From assembly GCA_001820095.1 (NCBI GenBank), contig MHOO01000003.1, positions 66,987 to 110,704 of the forward strand: a DNA stretch of 43,718 nucleotides, in the 5' to 3' direction. Numbering within the stretch: position 1 is the stretch's first letter; each line of letters opens with the position of its first letter. The position numbers and the translations under genes were made by a program. The DNA is from Candidatus Staskawiczbacteria bacterium RIFCSPHIGHO2_01_FULL_39_25 (GTDB lineage Bacteria > Patescibacteriota > Minisyncoccia > Minisyncoccales > Staskawiczbacteraceae). Under the pieces are notes generated by a model that was given only the letters and a program-made list of their open reading frames with translations, was not told the origin of the DNA and did no database searches. This document shows positions 1-24,776 of this stretch, piece by piece.

Positions 1-1447
1 TTTTGGTAATCGCGGGAATCGTTACAATAAATTCACTTCCTTTATTTTTTCCTTCGCTTTTTGCCTCAATGCTGCCTTGGTGCATGGTAATTAAGTTTTT
101 CACAATATTCAGGCCGATTCCCAACCCTCCTATGCCCATAACCATTTTATTAGACCCGCTGAATAGTTCAAATATCTTATCTATTTTTTTAGCATCCATG
201 CCTACTCCATCATCTTGTATCTTAATGATTATTTTTTCCTGTTTTATAGCCGAAGTTACCTTAATATGGCCCAATGTCTTGGTATATTTTGAGGCATTGT
301 TGATAAGGTTGACAATGATCTGTTCAAAACGCAGCGGGTCTACATATGCATACATAGGGTTGCTTTTAAAAACAACTGATAACTTCTGCCGCCGGTTATT
401 TATCAGCGGCATAGTGGCCTGGGTTGCATGATTGATAATTTCGCATATATTTTTAATTTTCTTTTTCAGTTTTATTTTTTGGCGGCTTAATCTGGCCACA
501 TCTAAAATATCATCTAAAAGGTATGCCATATTTTTAGATTGGCGCTCTATGATGTTAACTGATTCCCTGATGGCTGGATCTACGTTGTCTTGTTTGGCGA
601 TCATGGAATTAATGAGCTGGGTATTAGCCAGTATGGGGGTCAGGGGATTGCGCAACTCGTGGGACATAATGGATATAAAATTGTTTTTTTCTTCTTCTGT
701 TTTTTTCCGATGGGTAATATCTGAAAATATTAATGCAATCTGGTTTTCGTTGGGCTTGTAGGCATATAGTTCAAAATATTTATTTAAATCTTTATGATAG
801 GTTTCAAAGGAAAGAGGTTTGCCGGTAAGGGCAACGTTATCATAGTTTTTCCTGTTTTTAATGCTATCGCTGTGGCTTAATGTTGAAGGTATTTGGCTGA
901 TGGTTTTTCCTACTACGTCTTTCCTTTTTAATTTAGTTAATTTCTCAAATGCCGGGTTCACATCTAAAAAGCGGTAATCAGCGGGCTTGCCATTTTTGTT
1001 ATACAGTATCTCCTGCAAGGCGTATCCGTAATTCATGCTATTGAAGAGCATGTGATAGCGTTTCTCGCTTTCTTTTAAATTTTCATCAGCTTGCTTTCTA
1101 TCGGTAATGTCAGAACCGTATACAATTATTGAGTTAAAGTCGGGCATATAGTAAAAAAAATGCCTGAACCACCGGTTATTAAATTTTATTTCTCTGGAAA
1201 AAGACGATTTCCCTTTTTTTAATTGCTTAACAATATATGGCAAACCAGACAAATATTTATGTTTTGCCCCTTTCTTTTTTAAATCAGAAAAGATATTAAC
1301 AGAGCTGGGATTTTCGTACATTATATTCCCTTCTAAGTCAATCTCAATGACAGGCCTTGGATTGAATTCGGTGAAGGAAGCCAATCTCGCTATTTTTTCT
1401 ATTGGTTTCTGTTTAGGAAATATATTATTATGGTCTGAAGATTTCAT
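1..1447 (-). CDS. PAS-domain sensor histidine kinase, cytoplasmic (runs off the window at its C-terminus)
   Basis: Absent from the ORF track; read by hand on the minus strand from ATG at 1447 (MKSSDHNNIF). Contains PAS-like segments (FNPRPVIEIDLEGNIMYENP; YRFLDVNPAFEK), H-box FISIMSHELRNPLTPI and HATPase C-terminus SEGKNKGSEFIVTIP, all in one frame. Confidence 0.9.
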   Translation of the reverse strand, partial: MKSSDHNNIFPKQKPIEKIARLASFTEFNPRPVIEIDLEGNIMYENPSSVNIFSDLKKKGAKHKYLSGLPYIVKQLKKGKSSFSREIKFNNRWFRHFFYYMPDFNSIIVYGSDITDRKQADENLKESEKRYHMLFNSMNYGYALQEILYNKNGKPADYRFLDVNPAFEKLTKLKRKDVVGKTISQIPSTLSHSDSIKNRKNYDNVALTGKPLSFETYHKDLNKYFELYAYKPNENQIALIFSDITHRKKTEEEKNNFISIMSHELRNPLTPILANTQLINSMIAKQDNVDPAIRESVNIIERQSKNMAYLLDDILDVARLSRQKIKLKKKIKNICEIINHATQATMPLINNRRQKLSVVFKSNPMYAYVDPLRFEQIIVNLINNASKYTKTLGHIKVTSAIKQEKIIIKIQDDGVGMDAKKIDKIFELFSGSNKMVMGIGGLGIGLNIVKNLITMHQGSIEAKSEGKNKGSEFIVTIPAITK

Positions 1448-8022: not shown

Positions 8023-8095
8023 CTTCGCTTCGCCGAAGCTTTAGCGAAGGCGAGCTTCGCTAAAGTTCGTCAAAGCTACGGCGAGGCAAGCCCGC
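8023..8095. repeat. REP-like GC-rich palindrome cluster
   Basis: TTCGCCGAAGCTTTAGCGAAGGCGA (8029-8053) recurs exactly at 23416-23440. Confidence 0.8.
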
Positions 8096-17083: not shown

Positions 17084-18778
17084 ATGAAACCGTGGAGGTC
17101 ATACATAATATTTTCAGTGTATTTTTTGTTAGCGGCAATTATTATTAGCCGCTTATTTTATATCCAGGTGATTAATGGCAAATTATACCAAGCCCAAGCT
17201 TTGGGCCAGCAGGTTGCCTTTAGGGAAGTAAAAGGGGATCGGGGGGAGGTTTTCTTTGAAAATAGCAAGGAAAGCTATGGCAAATATGGTTCAGGCCAAT
17301 TAAAAAGCCTGGCGGTAAACCAGCAAGAGTGGTTAATGTACGCCATACCAAAAAAAATTCCCGATAAAAATGCGTTTGCAAAAACGCTTAGTGAAAATAC
17401 CAAACTTACAAAAGAATTTATCCTTGCCAAACTGGGGGAGTCTGAATCATATGTAATTTTAAAAAAAGAGCTCTTAGAAGATGATGTTGAGCCCTTAAAA
17501 AAATTACAATTGGAAGGGCTCTATTGGGAGAAATCTTCGGGCAGGTACTATCCGCAAGAACGGCTGGCTTCCCAGGTAGTAGGATTTTTAGGGGGAAATT
17601 TACAGGGCCAGTATGGCTTAGAAGGGCATTATGAAGAAATATTGAAAGGAAAAGAGGGGATAGAAGAAGAAAAAAGCGGTTTGGCGCTTATTGATTCTGA
17701 TCAAACCCAGCGGTACTTGAATGGATCAGATTTATACCTAACCATAGATTATAATATCCAGTTCCAGGCAGAATCCCTTTTAAAAGAAGCTAAAAAAAAT
17801 ATTGATATAGAGTCAGGCCAGATTATTGTGTTAAAGCCCGATTCTGGCAGAATTTTAGCCTTAGCTAATTTTCCTTCGTTTGATCCCAACAAATATTCAC
17901 AAGAAACCGGCTTTGATATTTTCCAGAATTCGGCGATCCAGAAAATTTTTGAACCCGGGTCGGTGTTCAAGCCTTTTACCATGGCCATTGCCCTCAATGA
18001 AGGGAAGGTTATCCCGGAAACAACGTTTAACGATACTGGTTCGGTTACCATAGGCCCTGATACGATCAATAATTTTGACCATAAAAAATACGGCCTCCAG
18101 AAAATGTCGGGCATTTTAGAAAAGTCTATTAATACGGGCGCGGTATTTCTTTCTAAATCAGCATCTCGCCAAACGTTTATAGATTACTTAGAGAAGTTTG
18201 GTTTTAATAATAAAACCGGAGTTGACTTGCAGGGAGAAGTCGCTTCTAAAAATGACCTTTTGAAAAAGGGTTCAGAGTTTGGTTTTGCCACTGCTTCCTT
18301 TGGGCAGGGGATTGAAATGACGCCTATACAGCTTGCCCGATCCTTTTGCATCTTTGCTAACGGTGGAAGATTAGTAAAGCCCTATATTGTTGAAAAAATT
18401 GTCCATGGAGCAGAAGAAATGATGATTAAGCCCGACATTTCAGGGCCGGTAATTTCAGAAAAAACAGCGTCAGAGGTTACCGCCATGCTTATTAACGTGG
18501 TAGACCGGGGGTTTGGAGATGTGGCAAAAATTAACGGGTATTATTTAGCGGGAAAAACGGGAACGGCCCAAGTTCCCTTTAAAGACAAGAAGGGGTATTA
18601 TCCGGATAAAACAATCCAAAGCTTTATTGGTTTTGGCCCGGCATTGAACCCGCAGTTTTTAATACTGGTAAAACTAGATAATCCAAAAGTTCCCAAATCA
18701 GCCCTTTCAGCAGCGCCTATTTTCAGAAAACTAGCCCAGTATATTATCAACTATTGGCAGATACCGCCTGACTACTAG
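17084..18778 (+). CDS. ftsI: Class B penicillin-binding protein (FtsI/PBP2 family)
   Basis: RYYP, GLEG, LTID, EPGSVFK (SxxK), KSIN (SxN), KTGTAQ. Confidence 0.9.
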   Translation: MKPWRSYIIFSVYFLLAAIIISRLFYIQVINGKLYQAQALGQQVAFREVKGDRGEVFFENSKESYGKYGSGQLKSLAVNQQEWLMYAIPKKIPDKNAFAKTLSENTKLTKEFILAKLGESESYVILKKELLEDDVEPLKKLQLEGLYWEKSSGRYYPQERLASQVVGFLGGNLQGQYGLEGHYEEILKGKEGIEEEKSGLALIDSDQTQRYLNGSDLYLTIDYNIQFQAESLLKEAKKNIDIESGQIIVLKPDSGRILALANFPSFDPNKYSQETGFDIFQNSAIQKIFEPGSVFKPFTMAIALNEGKVIPETTFNDTGSVTIGPDTINNFDHKKYGLQKMSGILEKSINTGAVFLSKSASRQTFIDYLEKFGFNNKTGVDLQGEVASKNDLLKKGSEFGFATASFGQGIEMTPIQLARSFCIFANGGRLVKPYIVEKIVHGAEEMMIKPDISGPVISEKTASEVTAMLINVVDRGFGDVAKINGYYLAGKTGTAQVPFKDKKGYYPDKTIQSFIGFGPALNPQFLILVKLDNPKVPKSALSAAPIFRKLAQYIINYWQIPPDY

Positions 18779-22063: not shown

Positions 22064-22109
22064 ACAGTTAAGGCTTGAAAAAAAACTTTAAAAATGTACA
22101 CTGAACTTA

Positions 22110-23792
22110 ATGAAAATAAAGAAAAAGAAGGTAAAAGTAAAAAGAATCCCAAAAAAGAAAAAATTGCCAAAAGCAAAGAAAGTTTTTATTAAAGCTAAAA
22201 AAAGCAAATCAGTTAAAGCAGTAAAGAAACCTGTAAAAAAGAAAAAAGTTCTGAAGCGTTCCGTAAAACGTATTGCAAAGAAAAAATCTTCAGCGAAAAC
22301 CAAAGCCCGTAAAAAAGTTGCAAAAATTAAAAAGAAAACACCTAAGCCCAGAAGAACATTAGCAATCAAGAAAATCATTAAAAAGAAACAGCCGCCAAGA
22401 GCATTCAAAGCCAGCAGGCCAAAAGAAGATTTCCCGGCAGAATCATTTTTCAAGGCGAAGATAAAAGTCATTGGCATTGGCGGGGGCGGGGGGTCTATTG
22501 TTTCAGAAATCGGCAGATCGCTTAACAAGGCCACATTTGTCATTGCCGATACCGATATGCGGGCTTTTAAAAAACGTTCTGGCATTAAGTATTTTTTATT
22601 CGGGCAGGAGCTTACCCATGGTTTGGGTACCGGGTTAAACCCCGTATTAGCAAGAATTGCCGCTGAACAGGAAAAAGACCGGATTGCCAAGCTGTTTGAA
22701 GACCAGGACATTGTTATTTTTATTGCCTCATTGGGCGGCGGGCTGGGGTCGGGGGCTACTAAGGTATTTGCCGAAACCTTAAAGGATTTTGGCGGCATTA
22801 CGTTTGGCATCTTCACCTTGCCTTTTAAATTTGAAGGAAAGCATAAGTACAAAATAGCCTATAAAGCACTGCGGGAATTACGAAAATCACTGAATGTTTC
22901 CATTACCATACCCAATGAAAGAATCTTTAAGATTATTGACTCAAATACGGCCATTACCGAAGCCTTTTCCATTGTCAATAAAAATTTAATTGGGTCGCTG
23001 GAAAGCCTCATTGACCTTATTTATAACCCGGGAGTCATTAACATTGACTTTGCCGATTTGCGGGCTATCCTACGGGGAAAGGGGAATTTGGCGTTCTTAA
23101 ATACCGCCGAGGTATCAGGCAAAGACCGGGTGGAAAAAATATCCCAGGAAATTTTATATAACCCTTTATACCAAAGCAATAATTTCATTGCGGAGAAAAT
23201 TTTATTTAATATTGCCGGGTCAGGAAGCCTAAGCATGCTGGAAGTTGATAAAATCAGCAGCGCCATTGCCAAAACAAACCCCAAAGCAAAAATTATTTTT
23301 GGCATTTCCAAAAATGCAAAATATAAAAATAAGATAAAGGCAACTTTGTTAATGACCGGATCGCCAAGCATTGCCGATGTTTTGGTGGCAAAAGAGGAGG
23401 CAAAGCCAGCTTCGGTTCGCCGAAGCTTTAGCGAAGGCGACTTAAAGATTGAAAAGAAAAAGGCAAAAAGTAGCCCCGCCAAAGCAAAAAAGAAACCGGC
23501 AGTAAAAAAAGAACCAGCGCCAACAGAAAAAAGCGAAGAACTAACGCCTTTGCTAGAACCCTTAACTCCAGTTGGTTTTAATGTTGTGCCACTTGATGCG
23601 GGTTTGAAAAAGTTAAATATTATTGATGCTGCTGCCGACCCTGCGCTCAATAGTGCCGTGGCAGACCAGCCTAAAAAAACTATACGAAGGACCGCTCTAG
23701 AAATAAAAAAAGCCCAGGATTCAGAAGAAAATAAAAAAACCCGGCAGGAGGAAGAGTGGGAAATCCCGGCGTTCCTAAGGGTGAAAAAATAG
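22110..23792 (+). CDS. ftsZ: FtsZ, divergent, with long Lys-rich N-terminal extension
   Basis: KVIGIGGGGG, DTD, SLGGGLGSG, LPFKFEG, INIDFAD and C-terminal WEIPAFLR. Confidence 0.92.
   Translation: MKIKKKKVKVKRIPKKKKLPKAKKVFIKAKKSKSVKAVKKPVKKKKVLKRSVKRIAKKKSSAKTKARKKVAKIKKKTPKPRRTLAIKKIIKKKQPPRAFKASRPKEDFPAESFFKAKIKVIGIGGGGGSIVSEIGRSLNKATFVIADTDMRAFKKRSGIKYFLFGQELTHGLGTGLNPVLARIAAEQEKDRIAKLFEDQDIVIFIASLGGGLGSGATKVFAETLKDFGGITFGIFTLPFKFEGKHKYKIAYKALRELRKSLNVSITIPNERIFKIIDSNTAITEAFSIVNKNLIGSLESLIDLIYNPGVINIDFADLRAILRGKGNLAFLNTAEVSGKDRVEKISQEILYNPLYQSNNFIAEKILFNIAGSGSLSMLEVDKISSAIAKTNPKAKIIFGISKNAKYKNKIKATLLMTGSPSIADVLVAKEEAKPASVRRSFSEGDLKIEKKKAKSSPAKAKKKPAVKKEPAPTEKSEELTPLLEPLTPVGFNVVPLDAGLKKLNIIDAAADPALNSAVADQPKKTIRRTALEIKKAQDSEENKKTRQEEEWEIPAFLRVKK
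23416..23440. repeat. REP-like unit inside the ftsZ linker (encodes RRSFSEG)
   Basis: 25-nt exact match to 8029-8053. Confidence 0.85.
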
Positions 23793-23891: not shown

Positions 23892-24776
23892 ATGGAGAAT
23901 AACGAGGAAGTGAGAAAGGCTATCATTCCCATTGCCGGCTTAGGCACGCGGTTTTTGCCGTTGTCGCTGGTTCTTTCCAAGGAATTTTTTCCCTTGGCCG
24001 ACAAGCCCATCATCCAATATATTATTGAAGAGGTAAAAAACTCGGGAATTAAAGAGGTGGTTTTTGTGGTAAGCCCGAAGCAAAAAATGGTCATGAATTA
24101 CTTTAAAAAATCTCCCGAAGTGGAAAAAGTTTTAATCCGCAGGAAAAAAGAAGCCCTATTAAAAGAACTGAAAGATTTTGAAGAAATGTTTGAAGGAATT
24201 TCTTTTTCTTTTGTCACCCAAAAAACGCCTAACGGTGATGGCCATGCCATTTTGCAAGCAGGAAAACTCCTCAAAAATGAACCGGTTGCCGTTTCTTTTG
24301 GAGACGATATTATAGCTTCCACAGAACCTGCCTTGGCCCAGCTCATCAATATTTTTAAGACCTGTAATGCCCCTATTATTGCCCTAAAAACCGTGCCAAG
24401 GGAAAAAGTGCCGGCATATGGTTCTGTGGCGGTAGAAAAAATTGCCCATAACCTGTATAAGATTAAAAAAATCATAGAAAAACCGGATCCTTCCCAGATA
24501 GAATCAAATTTAGTCATCGTAGGCAAATATGTTTTGACTCCCGAAGTATTTAGCTACCTAAAAAAGGCCCATCCTTCCAAAAAGGGAGAGGTTATTTTGG
24601 GCGAGGTTTTTGATAAAATGCTTAACGATGGCATTCCTATTTATGGGTACGAGGTAAAAGGGGATTGGCTTGAGTGTGGAGACAAGTTAAAATGGCTGAA
24701 ATCTTTCTTCTACACTTCTCTAAAAGACCCTATTTTCGGCAAAGAGTTGAAAGACTATCTCAAGAGCATTAAGTGA
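23892..24776 (+). CDS. galU: UTP--glucose-1-phosphate uridylyltransferase family
   Basis: KAIIPIAGLGTRFLP, KEFFPLADKP, GDGHAI, FGDD, IEKP, GKYVLTP, ECGDK. Confidence 0.88.
   Translation: MENNEEVRKAIIPIAGLGTRFLPLSLVLSKEFFPLADKPIIQYIIEEVKNSGIKEVVFVVSPKQKMVMNYFKKSPEVEKVLIRRKKEALLKELKDFEEMFEGISFSFVTQKTPNGDGHAILQAGKLLKNEPVAVSFGDDIIASTEPALAQLINIFKTCNAPIIALKTVPREKVPAYGSVAVEKIAHNLYKIKKIIEKPDPSQIESNLVIVGKYVLTPEVFSYLKKAHPSKKGEVILGEVFDKMLNDGIPIYGYEVKGDWLECGDKLKWLKSFFYTSLKDPIFGKELKDYLKSIK

Follow-up and report, generated by a model that had tools for sequence, protein, structure and literature searches.

The window analysed here is a stretch of 43,718 nucleotides (nt) from contig MHOO01000003.1 of Candidatus Staskawiczbacteria bacterium RIFCSPHIGHO2_01_FULL_39_25, a genome whose assembly measures 743 kb and is 99% complete. 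Positions 22110..23792 hold an intact open reading frame (ORF) of 560 residues on the + strand, as do all parts of the gene described below, and it encodes a divergent form of the division GTPase FtsZ. This protein is called FtsZ2 here, and a second copy, encoded after ftsA in the same genome, is called FtsZ1. FtsZ2 is the fast-evolving member of a pair of FtsZ paralogues specific to one order of Parcubacteria, and it carries a long polycationic tail ahead of its GTPase domain.

The core of FtsZ2 is that of an FtsZ protein. Pfam places residues 117–277 in Tubulin (PF00091; 108 bits, cut-off 33) and residues 328–417 in FtsZ_C (PF12327; 44.8 bits, cut-off 27), and FtsZ chains of the PDB match residues 116–417 (E = 1.6e-54). 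The NCBIfam equivalog model for ftsZ, TIGR00065, matches residues 114–430 with 235.8 bits, which is under its cut-off of 295.2. In a structure predicted by AlphaFold2 with a 48-sequence alignment, a step that an earlier reading made from the sequence alone (the sequence-only reading) had proposed, the core is modelled with confidence and residues 1–113 and 421–523 are predicted to be disordered (predicted local distance difference test, pLDDT, 36–51). The GTPase domain (22458..22940) has a pLDDT of about 85–96 and is followed by the C-terminal globular domain (23091..23360), which PF12327 and the model both delimit. The nucleotide-binding loops were read by residue-wise alignment to the FtsZ proteins of B. 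subtilis (2vam) and an enterobacterium (8h1o). T1 (GIGGGGGSIV, 22473-22502) reads GIGGGGGS against GGGGNN and GGGGGN in 2vam and 8h1o, and T3 (22620-22643) reads GLGTGLNP against GLGAGANP in solved FtsZ. T4 (22734-22754) reads GGGLGSG against GGGTGTG; it retains the glycine backbone but replaces the threonine, and the signature GGGTG[ST]G is absent. The T7 synergy loop (NIDFAD, 23040..23057) has both catalytic aspartates. The core is followed by a disordered basic linker (residues 421–523, 23370..23678, pLDDT 36–43) and by a C-terminal helix (residues 529–551, pLDDT about 85) that runs into a peptide of the FtsA-binding type (23694..23780). The protein ends in EEEWEIPAFLRVKK, in which the putative anchor WEIPAFLR occupies residues 550–557. 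Residues 431–560, which comprise the linker, helix and C-peptide, have a net charge of +9, and R526, R527, L530, Q546, E547, E549, W550, E551, P553, F555 and R557 are invariant in the 48-sequence alignment. The sequence-only reading had noticed that T1, T3 and T4 are altered and that T7 and WEIPAFLR are retained, and alignment to solved structures bears it out.

The N-terminal tail spans residues 1–115 (22110..22454) and contains 47 Lys, 8 Arg and 3 acidic residues, giving a net charge of +52. A direct count confirms the composition that had been reported for the first 100 residues, with 45 Lys, 7 Arg and neither Asp nor Glu. The tail is predicted to be disordered (residues 1–113, pLDDT 40–51) and joins strand S1 of the core through the motif FPAESFFK (residues 108–115, 22431..22454), whose F108 and F114 are invariant or nearly so in the 48-sequence alignment. 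Several lines of evidence say that this tail is translated. The only common start codons ahead of the core are the ATG at 22110..22112, which is preceded by an in-frame stop at 22089, and the TTG of codon 19; from there to the G-box the frame is free of ATG, GTG and TTG. A start near the core, which the sequence-only reading had named as a possible refutation, is thereby ruled out. A sigma-70-like promoter site (TTGAAA, 16-nt spacer, TACACT; 22075..22102) ends 7 nt ahead of the ATG, which is the spacing of a leaderless mRNA. The absence of later start codons and this leaderless-type promoter together point to translation from the ATG. The same layout precedes the first ATG of FtsZ2 orthologues, and an order-wide count finds TTGn-16..19-TAnnnT-5..8-ATG at 46 of 84 FtsZ2 loci and at none of 82 FtsZ1 loci. 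Furthermore, only 5 of the 20 Lys-Lys dicodons of the tail are AAA-AAA, against 54% genome-wide, and for all its 47 lysines the tail has no A-run longer than 7; such avoidance fits selection on a translated tail. A 254-residue antisense ORF (22088..22852) is a Phe-rich mirror of the Lys codons and is no gene.

The tail is shared by the relatives of FtsZ2. It is rich in Lys and Arg and poor in acidic residues in all 120 closest homologues, so that its conservation, left for checking in the sequence-only reading, holds; its length there is 15–176 residues (median 100), and all 120 proteins keep an FPAESFFK-like junction and the ending EKEWEIPAFLRK. In the genus, the tail consists of 36% K, 8% V, 7% A, 7% I and 7% R, whereas the N-ends of canonical FtsZ are short and acidic, with 8% K and 15% D+E. 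Among 150 representatives of clusters at 50% identity, about 95 are FtsZ2-like, with basic tails of about 7–231 residues, T1 of the form ..G[SN]I, T3 of the form GLG[TC]GM, T4 of the form GGG[T/V/L/A/M/F/I]GSG, T7 NIDFAD and the C-end W[ED]xPAFLR. The Thr-to-Leu replacement in T4 is therefore one state of a position that varies freely in this family. In 63 genomes having both copies, the net charge of the FtsZ2 tail is positive in 62, its median length is about 36 residues, and the longest tails (80–132 residues) occur in the family of the source genome; complete FtsZ2 ORFs have a C-terminal extension of 60–260 residues that ends in the peptide. A semi-conserved KKVLVKKK-like motif recurs in 48 of the 120 genus tails. 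Overall, the tail is conserved by its charge and not by its sequence.

The second copy complements FtsZ2 in its parts. FtsZ1 is encoded straight after ftsA on contig 8 (G000:C8:31098-32015; locus L001:1492-2412). It is about 306 residues long, starts with MNPKIKVVG, has the canonical signature GGGTGSG and ends in ..ITVIATKF. Because FtsZ1 goes no further than the final core strand, it has neither a linker nor an FtsA-binding peptide; an N-terminal tail is absent too, and its C-terminal extension is 1–8 residues in every FtsZ1 examined. Its T7 loop in the source genome reads TIDFAS, in which the aspartate equivalent to D212 of E. coli is gone; across the genus the loop has the form T/S/N-[IV]-D-F-A-S, with Ser at the D212 position. 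The sequence-only reading had offered a low-GTPase paralogue as one interpretation of the window's gene. The paralogue is real, being the ftsZ that follows ftsA on another contig, but low GTPase activity of FtsZ2 does not serve as the main explanation, since FtsZ1 is the copy that loses a catalytic aspartate.

The pair is confined to one order. FtsZ matches were obtained in 40 of 41 genomes (the source and 40 relatives), nearly all of which have two copies, one of about 310 and one of 420–600 residues, and two matches each were obtained in about 80 of the 91 genomes sampled from the order. By contrast, two copies occur in only 5 of 120 genomes of the class, all 5 from this order, and the remaining 115 with a match have a single FtsZ of 350–514 residues. 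Among 150 phylum-wide genomes, pairs of the FtsZ1/FtsZ2 type are again found solely in the same order, and the other classes sampled have a single copy. The single-copy FtsZ of the Candidate Phyla Radiation (CPR) has an N-end of 10–11 residues (MPQIKPDIETF or MEIKPEIETF; 1 K/R against 2–3 D/E), a linker and a C-end of the DIPAFIRRK type. Two trees were built, one of 100 sequences (LG+C20 with posterior mean site frequencies, PMSF; quick search) and one of 150. In the former, FtsZ1 and FtsZ2 form one clade inside the sampled CPR FtsZ, with a Shimodaira–Hasegawa-like approximate likelihood ratio (SH-aLRT) of 97; the clade is recovered in the latter with 99. FtsZ2 is monophyletic in both (SH-aLRT 99 with 100 sequences, 100 with 150) and is sister to, or derived from, FtsZ1 (SH-aLRT 97–100). 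The 100-sequence tree gives FtsZ2 a stem of 1.05 changes per site and FtsZ1 the shape of a short-branched grade. Four genomes of the same order (G317, G355, G362 and G356; loci L196-L199) have a single FtsZ of 362–384 residues with a short, non-basic N-end and the C-end EEWE[VI]PAFLR. Three of the four fall outside the FtsZ1+FtsZ2 clade (branch support 99, 150-sequence tree), and by this position they would represent the state before the duplication.

These relationships indicate that the pair arose by a single duplication inside the order. The ancestral protein combined an N-end that was short and acidic with a linker and a C-peptide of the form xIPAFxR. After the duplication, FtsZ1 stayed by ftsA and lost the linker and the FtsA-binding peptide, and FtsZ2 moved beside galU while keeping the linker, the peptide and both T7 aspartates. 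FtsZ2 evolved fast, with relaxation of the T4 threonine, a shift of the core to basic charge and the gain of the disordered polybasic tail. Just outside the clade of the pair lie three further sequences (P0230, P0245 and P0254) with GGGTG[ST]G and moderately basic N-ends of 21–59 residues. Their position raises the possibility that a basic N-end predates the duplication in some sister lineage.

Loss of catalytic parts is asymmetric between the two copies. In the 63 genomes with both copies, the two T7 aspartates are intact in all 63 FtsZ2 proteins and in 46 FtsZ1 proteins, and the canonical T4 signature GGGTG[ST]G is present in 46 FtsZ1 and 27 FtsZ2 proteins. On the tree, T7 loss affects 16 of 56 FtsZ1 sequences and requires at least 9 changes, and it is seen in none of 50 FtsZ2 and none of 44 single-copy FtsZ sequences. 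Relaxed constraint on T7 is thus limited to FtsZ1, which shares its genome with FtsZ2, and never affects FtsZ2 itself. The invariance of T7 in FtsZ2 of the paired genomes and retention of the C-peptide throughout the family rule out a decaying FtsZ2, which the sequence-only reading had considered as a refutation of its proposal. In E. coli FtsZ, the substitution D212A leaves 7% of the GTPase activity (PMC8142252). Because T7 decay is confined to FtsZ1, the simplest reading is that FtsZ2 supplies T7 in trans, which would mean that both proteins stack in one filament. FtsZ1, being devoid of a tether, would reach the membrane solely through FtsZ2.

The tail is exceptional in the proteome and carries no recognisable domain. 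When about 800 ORFs of the source genome were scanned for polybasic segments, comparable ends turned up only in ribosomal proteins and in the primary sigma factor, so that lysine tails as a proteome-wide habit are ruled out for this genome, the sigma factor being the sole non-ribosomal companion. A domain search with FtsZ2 retrieves FtsZ domains only and no globular histone or HU domain. The motif [ST]P[KR][KR] (S/TPKK) is absent from the tail and present in 7 of 120 genus tails. The term histone-like, used for the tail in the sequence-only reading, accordingly holds for its composition and not for a globular histone domain, S/TPKK or an AT-hook. Both FtsZ cores are basic as well. The core charges in the source genome are +2 for FtsZ1 and +13 for FtsZ2 (medians +6 and +11), against −9 for single-copy CPR FtsZ and −11.5 for other bacteria, and the FtsZ2 core has an isoelectric point (pI) of 9.6, against about 5 for canonical FtsZ, in a proteome of median pI 8.8. 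FtsK is present in the source genome, and there is no match for MinD, SepF, ZapA, ParB_N, HU or DivIVA. Within the order, 30 of 91 genomes gave a match for HU (PF00216), as opposed to 91 of 97 genomes from the rest of the class; the source genome and 22 of 24 genus genomes gave none.

The best overall explanation, in which we place modest confidence, is a division filament built from FtsZ1 and FtsZ2, in which FtsZ2 provides the anchor and the T7 loop and its tail engages a polyanion. FtsZ1 and FtsZ2 would co-assemble into this single filament. The C-peptide of FtsZ2 would tether it to FtsA and the membrane, and the T7 loop of FtsZ2 would trigger hydrolysis of the GTP held by the subunit below; such a supply would matter because FtsZ1 of the genus reads TIDFAS, the equivalent of D212S in E. 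coli. In FtsZ, the N-end and the C-terminal tether leave the subunit on roughly opposite faces. The tail, with its net charge of +52, would hence point into the crowded cytoplasm, where it would most likely bind nucleic acid by charge, namely chromosomal DNA and possibly RNA. The net charge of FtsZ2, near +73, suggests such binding in a cell packed with DNA and ribosomes. A tail bound in this way would link the ring to the nucleoid or help to place the ring with respect to the nucleoid, in a cell where Min, ParB/Noc, ZapA, SepF, DivIVA and HU are not detectable. This role of the tail within the overall explanation is tentative, and we put it at somewhat short of an even chance.

Several observations weigh against this explanation. 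The case for co-assembly of FtsZ1 and FtsZ2 consists entirely of their complementary losses. Variants of T4 occur in FtsZ1 too, and loss of T7 in FtsZ1 is not associated with loss of the T4 threonine in FtsZ2 across the 63 genomes (Fisher p = 0.25), which leaves a strict, tubulin-like complementary decay of the two loops unsupported. The length and charge of the tail do not track the presence of HU inside the order (p = 0.5–0.7), and the GRP core of an AT-hook is found in none of the 120 genus tails, that of the window's FtsZ2 included. Finally, compositional drift may account for some of the basic character of FtsZ2, since both FtsZ cores and the proteome as a whole are basic. Two roles of the tail were rejected. 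Replacement of HU is not supported: tails are of like length and charge in HU-plus and HU-minus genomes, and the charge carried would, by estimate, be small relative to the genome. An acidic FtsZ1 core as partner of the tail is ruled out because FtsZ1 cores are likewise basic.

A stronger version holds that the filament is an obligate, tubulin-like two-subunit polymer, in which FtsZ1 is a filler that holds GTP, FtsZ2 is the only source of T7 and of the link to FtsA, and the tail grips the chromosome. We regard this version as unlikely. If true, a treadmilling ring would also position or clear the nucleoid, replacing Min, Noc and ParABS, which are missing from these cells.

Among the alternatives, an electrostatic tether of the tail on anionic phospholipids, which would give the filament a second, FtsA-independent anchor, survives best and is nonetheless improbable. 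Polybasic stretches bind acidic lipids, the tail, the linker and both cores are basic, and FtsZ1 has no tether of its own. However, the strict conservation of the FtsA-binding peptide implies that a tether already exists, the N-end would lie on the side of the subunit remote from the C-terminal tether, and the tails have no aromatic or lipidation motifs. Their amphipathic periodicity is not above that of shuffled sequences (mean z 0.5 at 100 degrees; z above 2 in 10% of FtsZ2 tails), which speaks against an amphipathic helix. Quite unlikely, too, is a built-in bundling or condensing element that would cross-link adjacent filaments, directly or via polyanions, and replace Zap proteins and SepF. 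Polycations bundle FtsZ in vitro, and the basic C-terminal variable region of B. subtilis FtsZ promotes lateral association. Moreover, ZapA and SepF were not found in the source genome, and a tail of free length and conserved charge is what a charge-driven interaction predicts. With the cores of FtsZ1 and FtsZ2 both basic, though, a cationic tail would have no obvious acidic surface to bind unless a polyanion forms the bridge.

It is very unlikely that FtsZ2 builds a separate cytoskeletal or DNA-moving filament outside the division ring, following a TubZ-like logic. FtsZ2 is unlinked to genes of the division and cell wall (dcw) cluster, is served by a promoter of its own, lies beside galU at many loci and sits on a long stem branch, and matches of the ParB and MinD/ParA types are absent from the source genome. 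Nevertheless, the FtsA-binding peptide is found on FtsZ2 alone and not on the ftsA-linked FtsZ1, and repeated T7 loss in FtsZ1 is hard to explain unless T7 comes from another subunit. Equally unlikely is a tail without a specific target, that is, a basic leader overgrown through slippage at Lys codons and through small inserted elements. A length that ranges from about 7 to about 231 residues with little alignable sequence, an in-frame palindrome resembling repetitive extragenic palindromic (REP) elements in the linker and a basic proteome would fit such a history. This account has to contend with a tail that is basic in 62 of 63 members of the order and in no single-copy FtsZ, that has its like on just two non-ribosomal proteins of the proteome when FtsZ2 itself is counted, that avoids long A-runs in its codons and that repeats the KKVLVKKK-like motif in the genus. 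An annotation artefact with a true start near the core, or a decaying pseudogene, is practically excluded: the sub-threshold TIGR00065 score and the altered signature motif would suit it, but start codons are lacking close to the core, more than 80 genomes conserve an intact frame in which T7 and the C-peptide do not vary, and the promoter keeps its spacing from the ATG in relatives.

FtsZ2 agrees with canonical FtsZ in its two-domain GTPase fold, its T7 loop of the form NxDFAD, its disordered linker and its xIPAFLR peptide. It differs in T1 (..GS), T3 (GLGTG) and T4 (GGGLGSG), in its basic core, and in its location outside the dcw cluster in a genome with a second FtsZ. Where canonical FtsZ begins with about 10 residues of acidic or neutral character, FtsZ2 has a polycationic tail of 115. 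Santana-Molina et al. 2023 (PMC9871819) mention a "divergent second copy of FtsZ in some CPR genomes", which is long-branched, was inferred to derive from CPR FtsZ and was treated as a phylogenetically unstable branch. This second copy very probably belongs to the same gene family as FtsZ2. A term search of PMC9871819 finds neither "N-terminal" nor "lysine" in its text, and no mention of the tail or of the split of parts. The tail, the loss of the C-peptide from FtsZ1, the asymmetry of T7 and the restriction to one order emerge from the present analysis. The one-paragraph mention in PMC9871819 was the only result of a literature search on lysine-rich N-terminal tails of FtsZ and on CPR FtsZ paralogues, and the tail, the complementary losses and an order-wide system of two FtsZ proteins appear to be undescribed in the literature searched.

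The Z ring of bacteria in textbooks consists of one FtsZ, and rings of two are known from chloroplasts and archaea. In chloroplasts, for which TerBush and Osteryoung 2012 (PMC3494859) and Porter et al. 2021 (PMC8142252) were consulted, two paralogues make up one ring, only FtsZ2 keeps the C-terminal peptide by which the ring is fastened to a membrane protein, and FtsZ1 and FtsZ2 co-assemble into heteropolymers (PMC3494859). The roles proposed for the CPR pair are divided in the same way. The chloroplast pair arose by an independent duplication and works in an organelle, and the CPR pair belongs to a bacterial lineage of the free-living type. Plant FtsZ1 keeps its T7 aspartates and linker, unlike CPR FtsZ1, and a polybasic N-tail is undescribed for plant FtsZ, whose N-terminal extensions are transit peptides; for the CPR pair, co-assembly is a proposal. 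A second likeness is to alpha/beta-tubulin and BtubA/B, in which two paralogues share one filament and the catalytic T7 residue is functional on one of them only; TIDFAS in FtsZ1 and NIDFAD in FtsZ2 of the genus are similar in this respect. Unlike in the tubulins, T7 is lost in about a quarter of FtsZ1 lineages and is uncoupled from T4 of FtsZ2, and an obligate 1:1 dimer is unsupported.

Long, disordered, acid-free segments dominated by Lys also occur in the C-terminal tail of histone H1, mycobacterial HupB, Streptomyces HupS and actinobacterial TopA. Lys-rich tails of nucleoid and DNA proteins bind DNA by charge (e.g. PMC7398561, PMC3643593). The likeness of the FtsZ2 tail to these segments is compositional only, and the Ala/Pro-rich sequence of H1 or the PAKK repeats are different. 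The polycationic tail of the anchor-bearing copy is a candidate for a part that would connect the ring directly with the nucleoid or with another polyanion. In a whole order of ultra-small bacteria, one FtsZ copy has the anchor peptide and an always intact T7 loop, and the other has neither reliably. The pair may thus serve as a natural, repeated experiment in the transition from homopolymer to heteropolymer, the step behind alpha/beta-tubulin.

The genes around ftsZ2 are a DUF167 gene, an unassigned 249-residue ORF and galU, and neither ftsA nor ftsQ is adjacent, in agreement with the sequence-only reading. galU (UTP-glucose-1-phosphate uridylyltransferase; Pfam NTP_transferase; 23892..24776, + strand) lies on the same strand 99 nt 3′ of ftsZ2, and the pairing is kept at 54 of 86 FtsZ2 loci. 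No terminator-like site was found on the + strand of the gap between the two genes. In B. subtilis and E. coli, FtsZ is subject to control that depends on UDP-glucose, and the link between ftsZ2 and galU may be functional. A class B penicillin-binding protein (PBP) with transpeptidase and PBP dimer domains is encoded at 17084-18778. It lies about 3.3 kb upstream, beyond genes that run in the opposite direction, and it is no operon partner of ftsZ2.

The primary sigma-70-type factor of the source genome (394 residues; G000:C11:152006-153190) begins with about 40 residues that are nearly pure Lys, Arg and Pro. The N-end of sigma-70 is usually the acidic region 1.1. In a relative (L038, genome G027), the FtsZ2 tail contains AT-hook-like repeats, GRGRPRKRGRPKK twice, which are the sole hint of sequence-specific DNA binding seen in any FtsZ2 tail; a GRP core is also present in the tail of P0131. 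The REP-like palindrome of the ftsZ2 linker measures 31 nt (23410..23440, + strand), is read in frame as ..ASVRRSFSEGD.. and has the sequence CTTCGGTTCGCCGAAGCTTTAGCGAAGGCGA. It is 97% identical to a copy at 8023-8053, which belongs to a cluster of intergenic palindromes. Odd peptides in the FtsZ2 tails of relatives (FAKALASRRKK and PAKAGIQ..SGSPIKSGMT) may share a REP-like origin.

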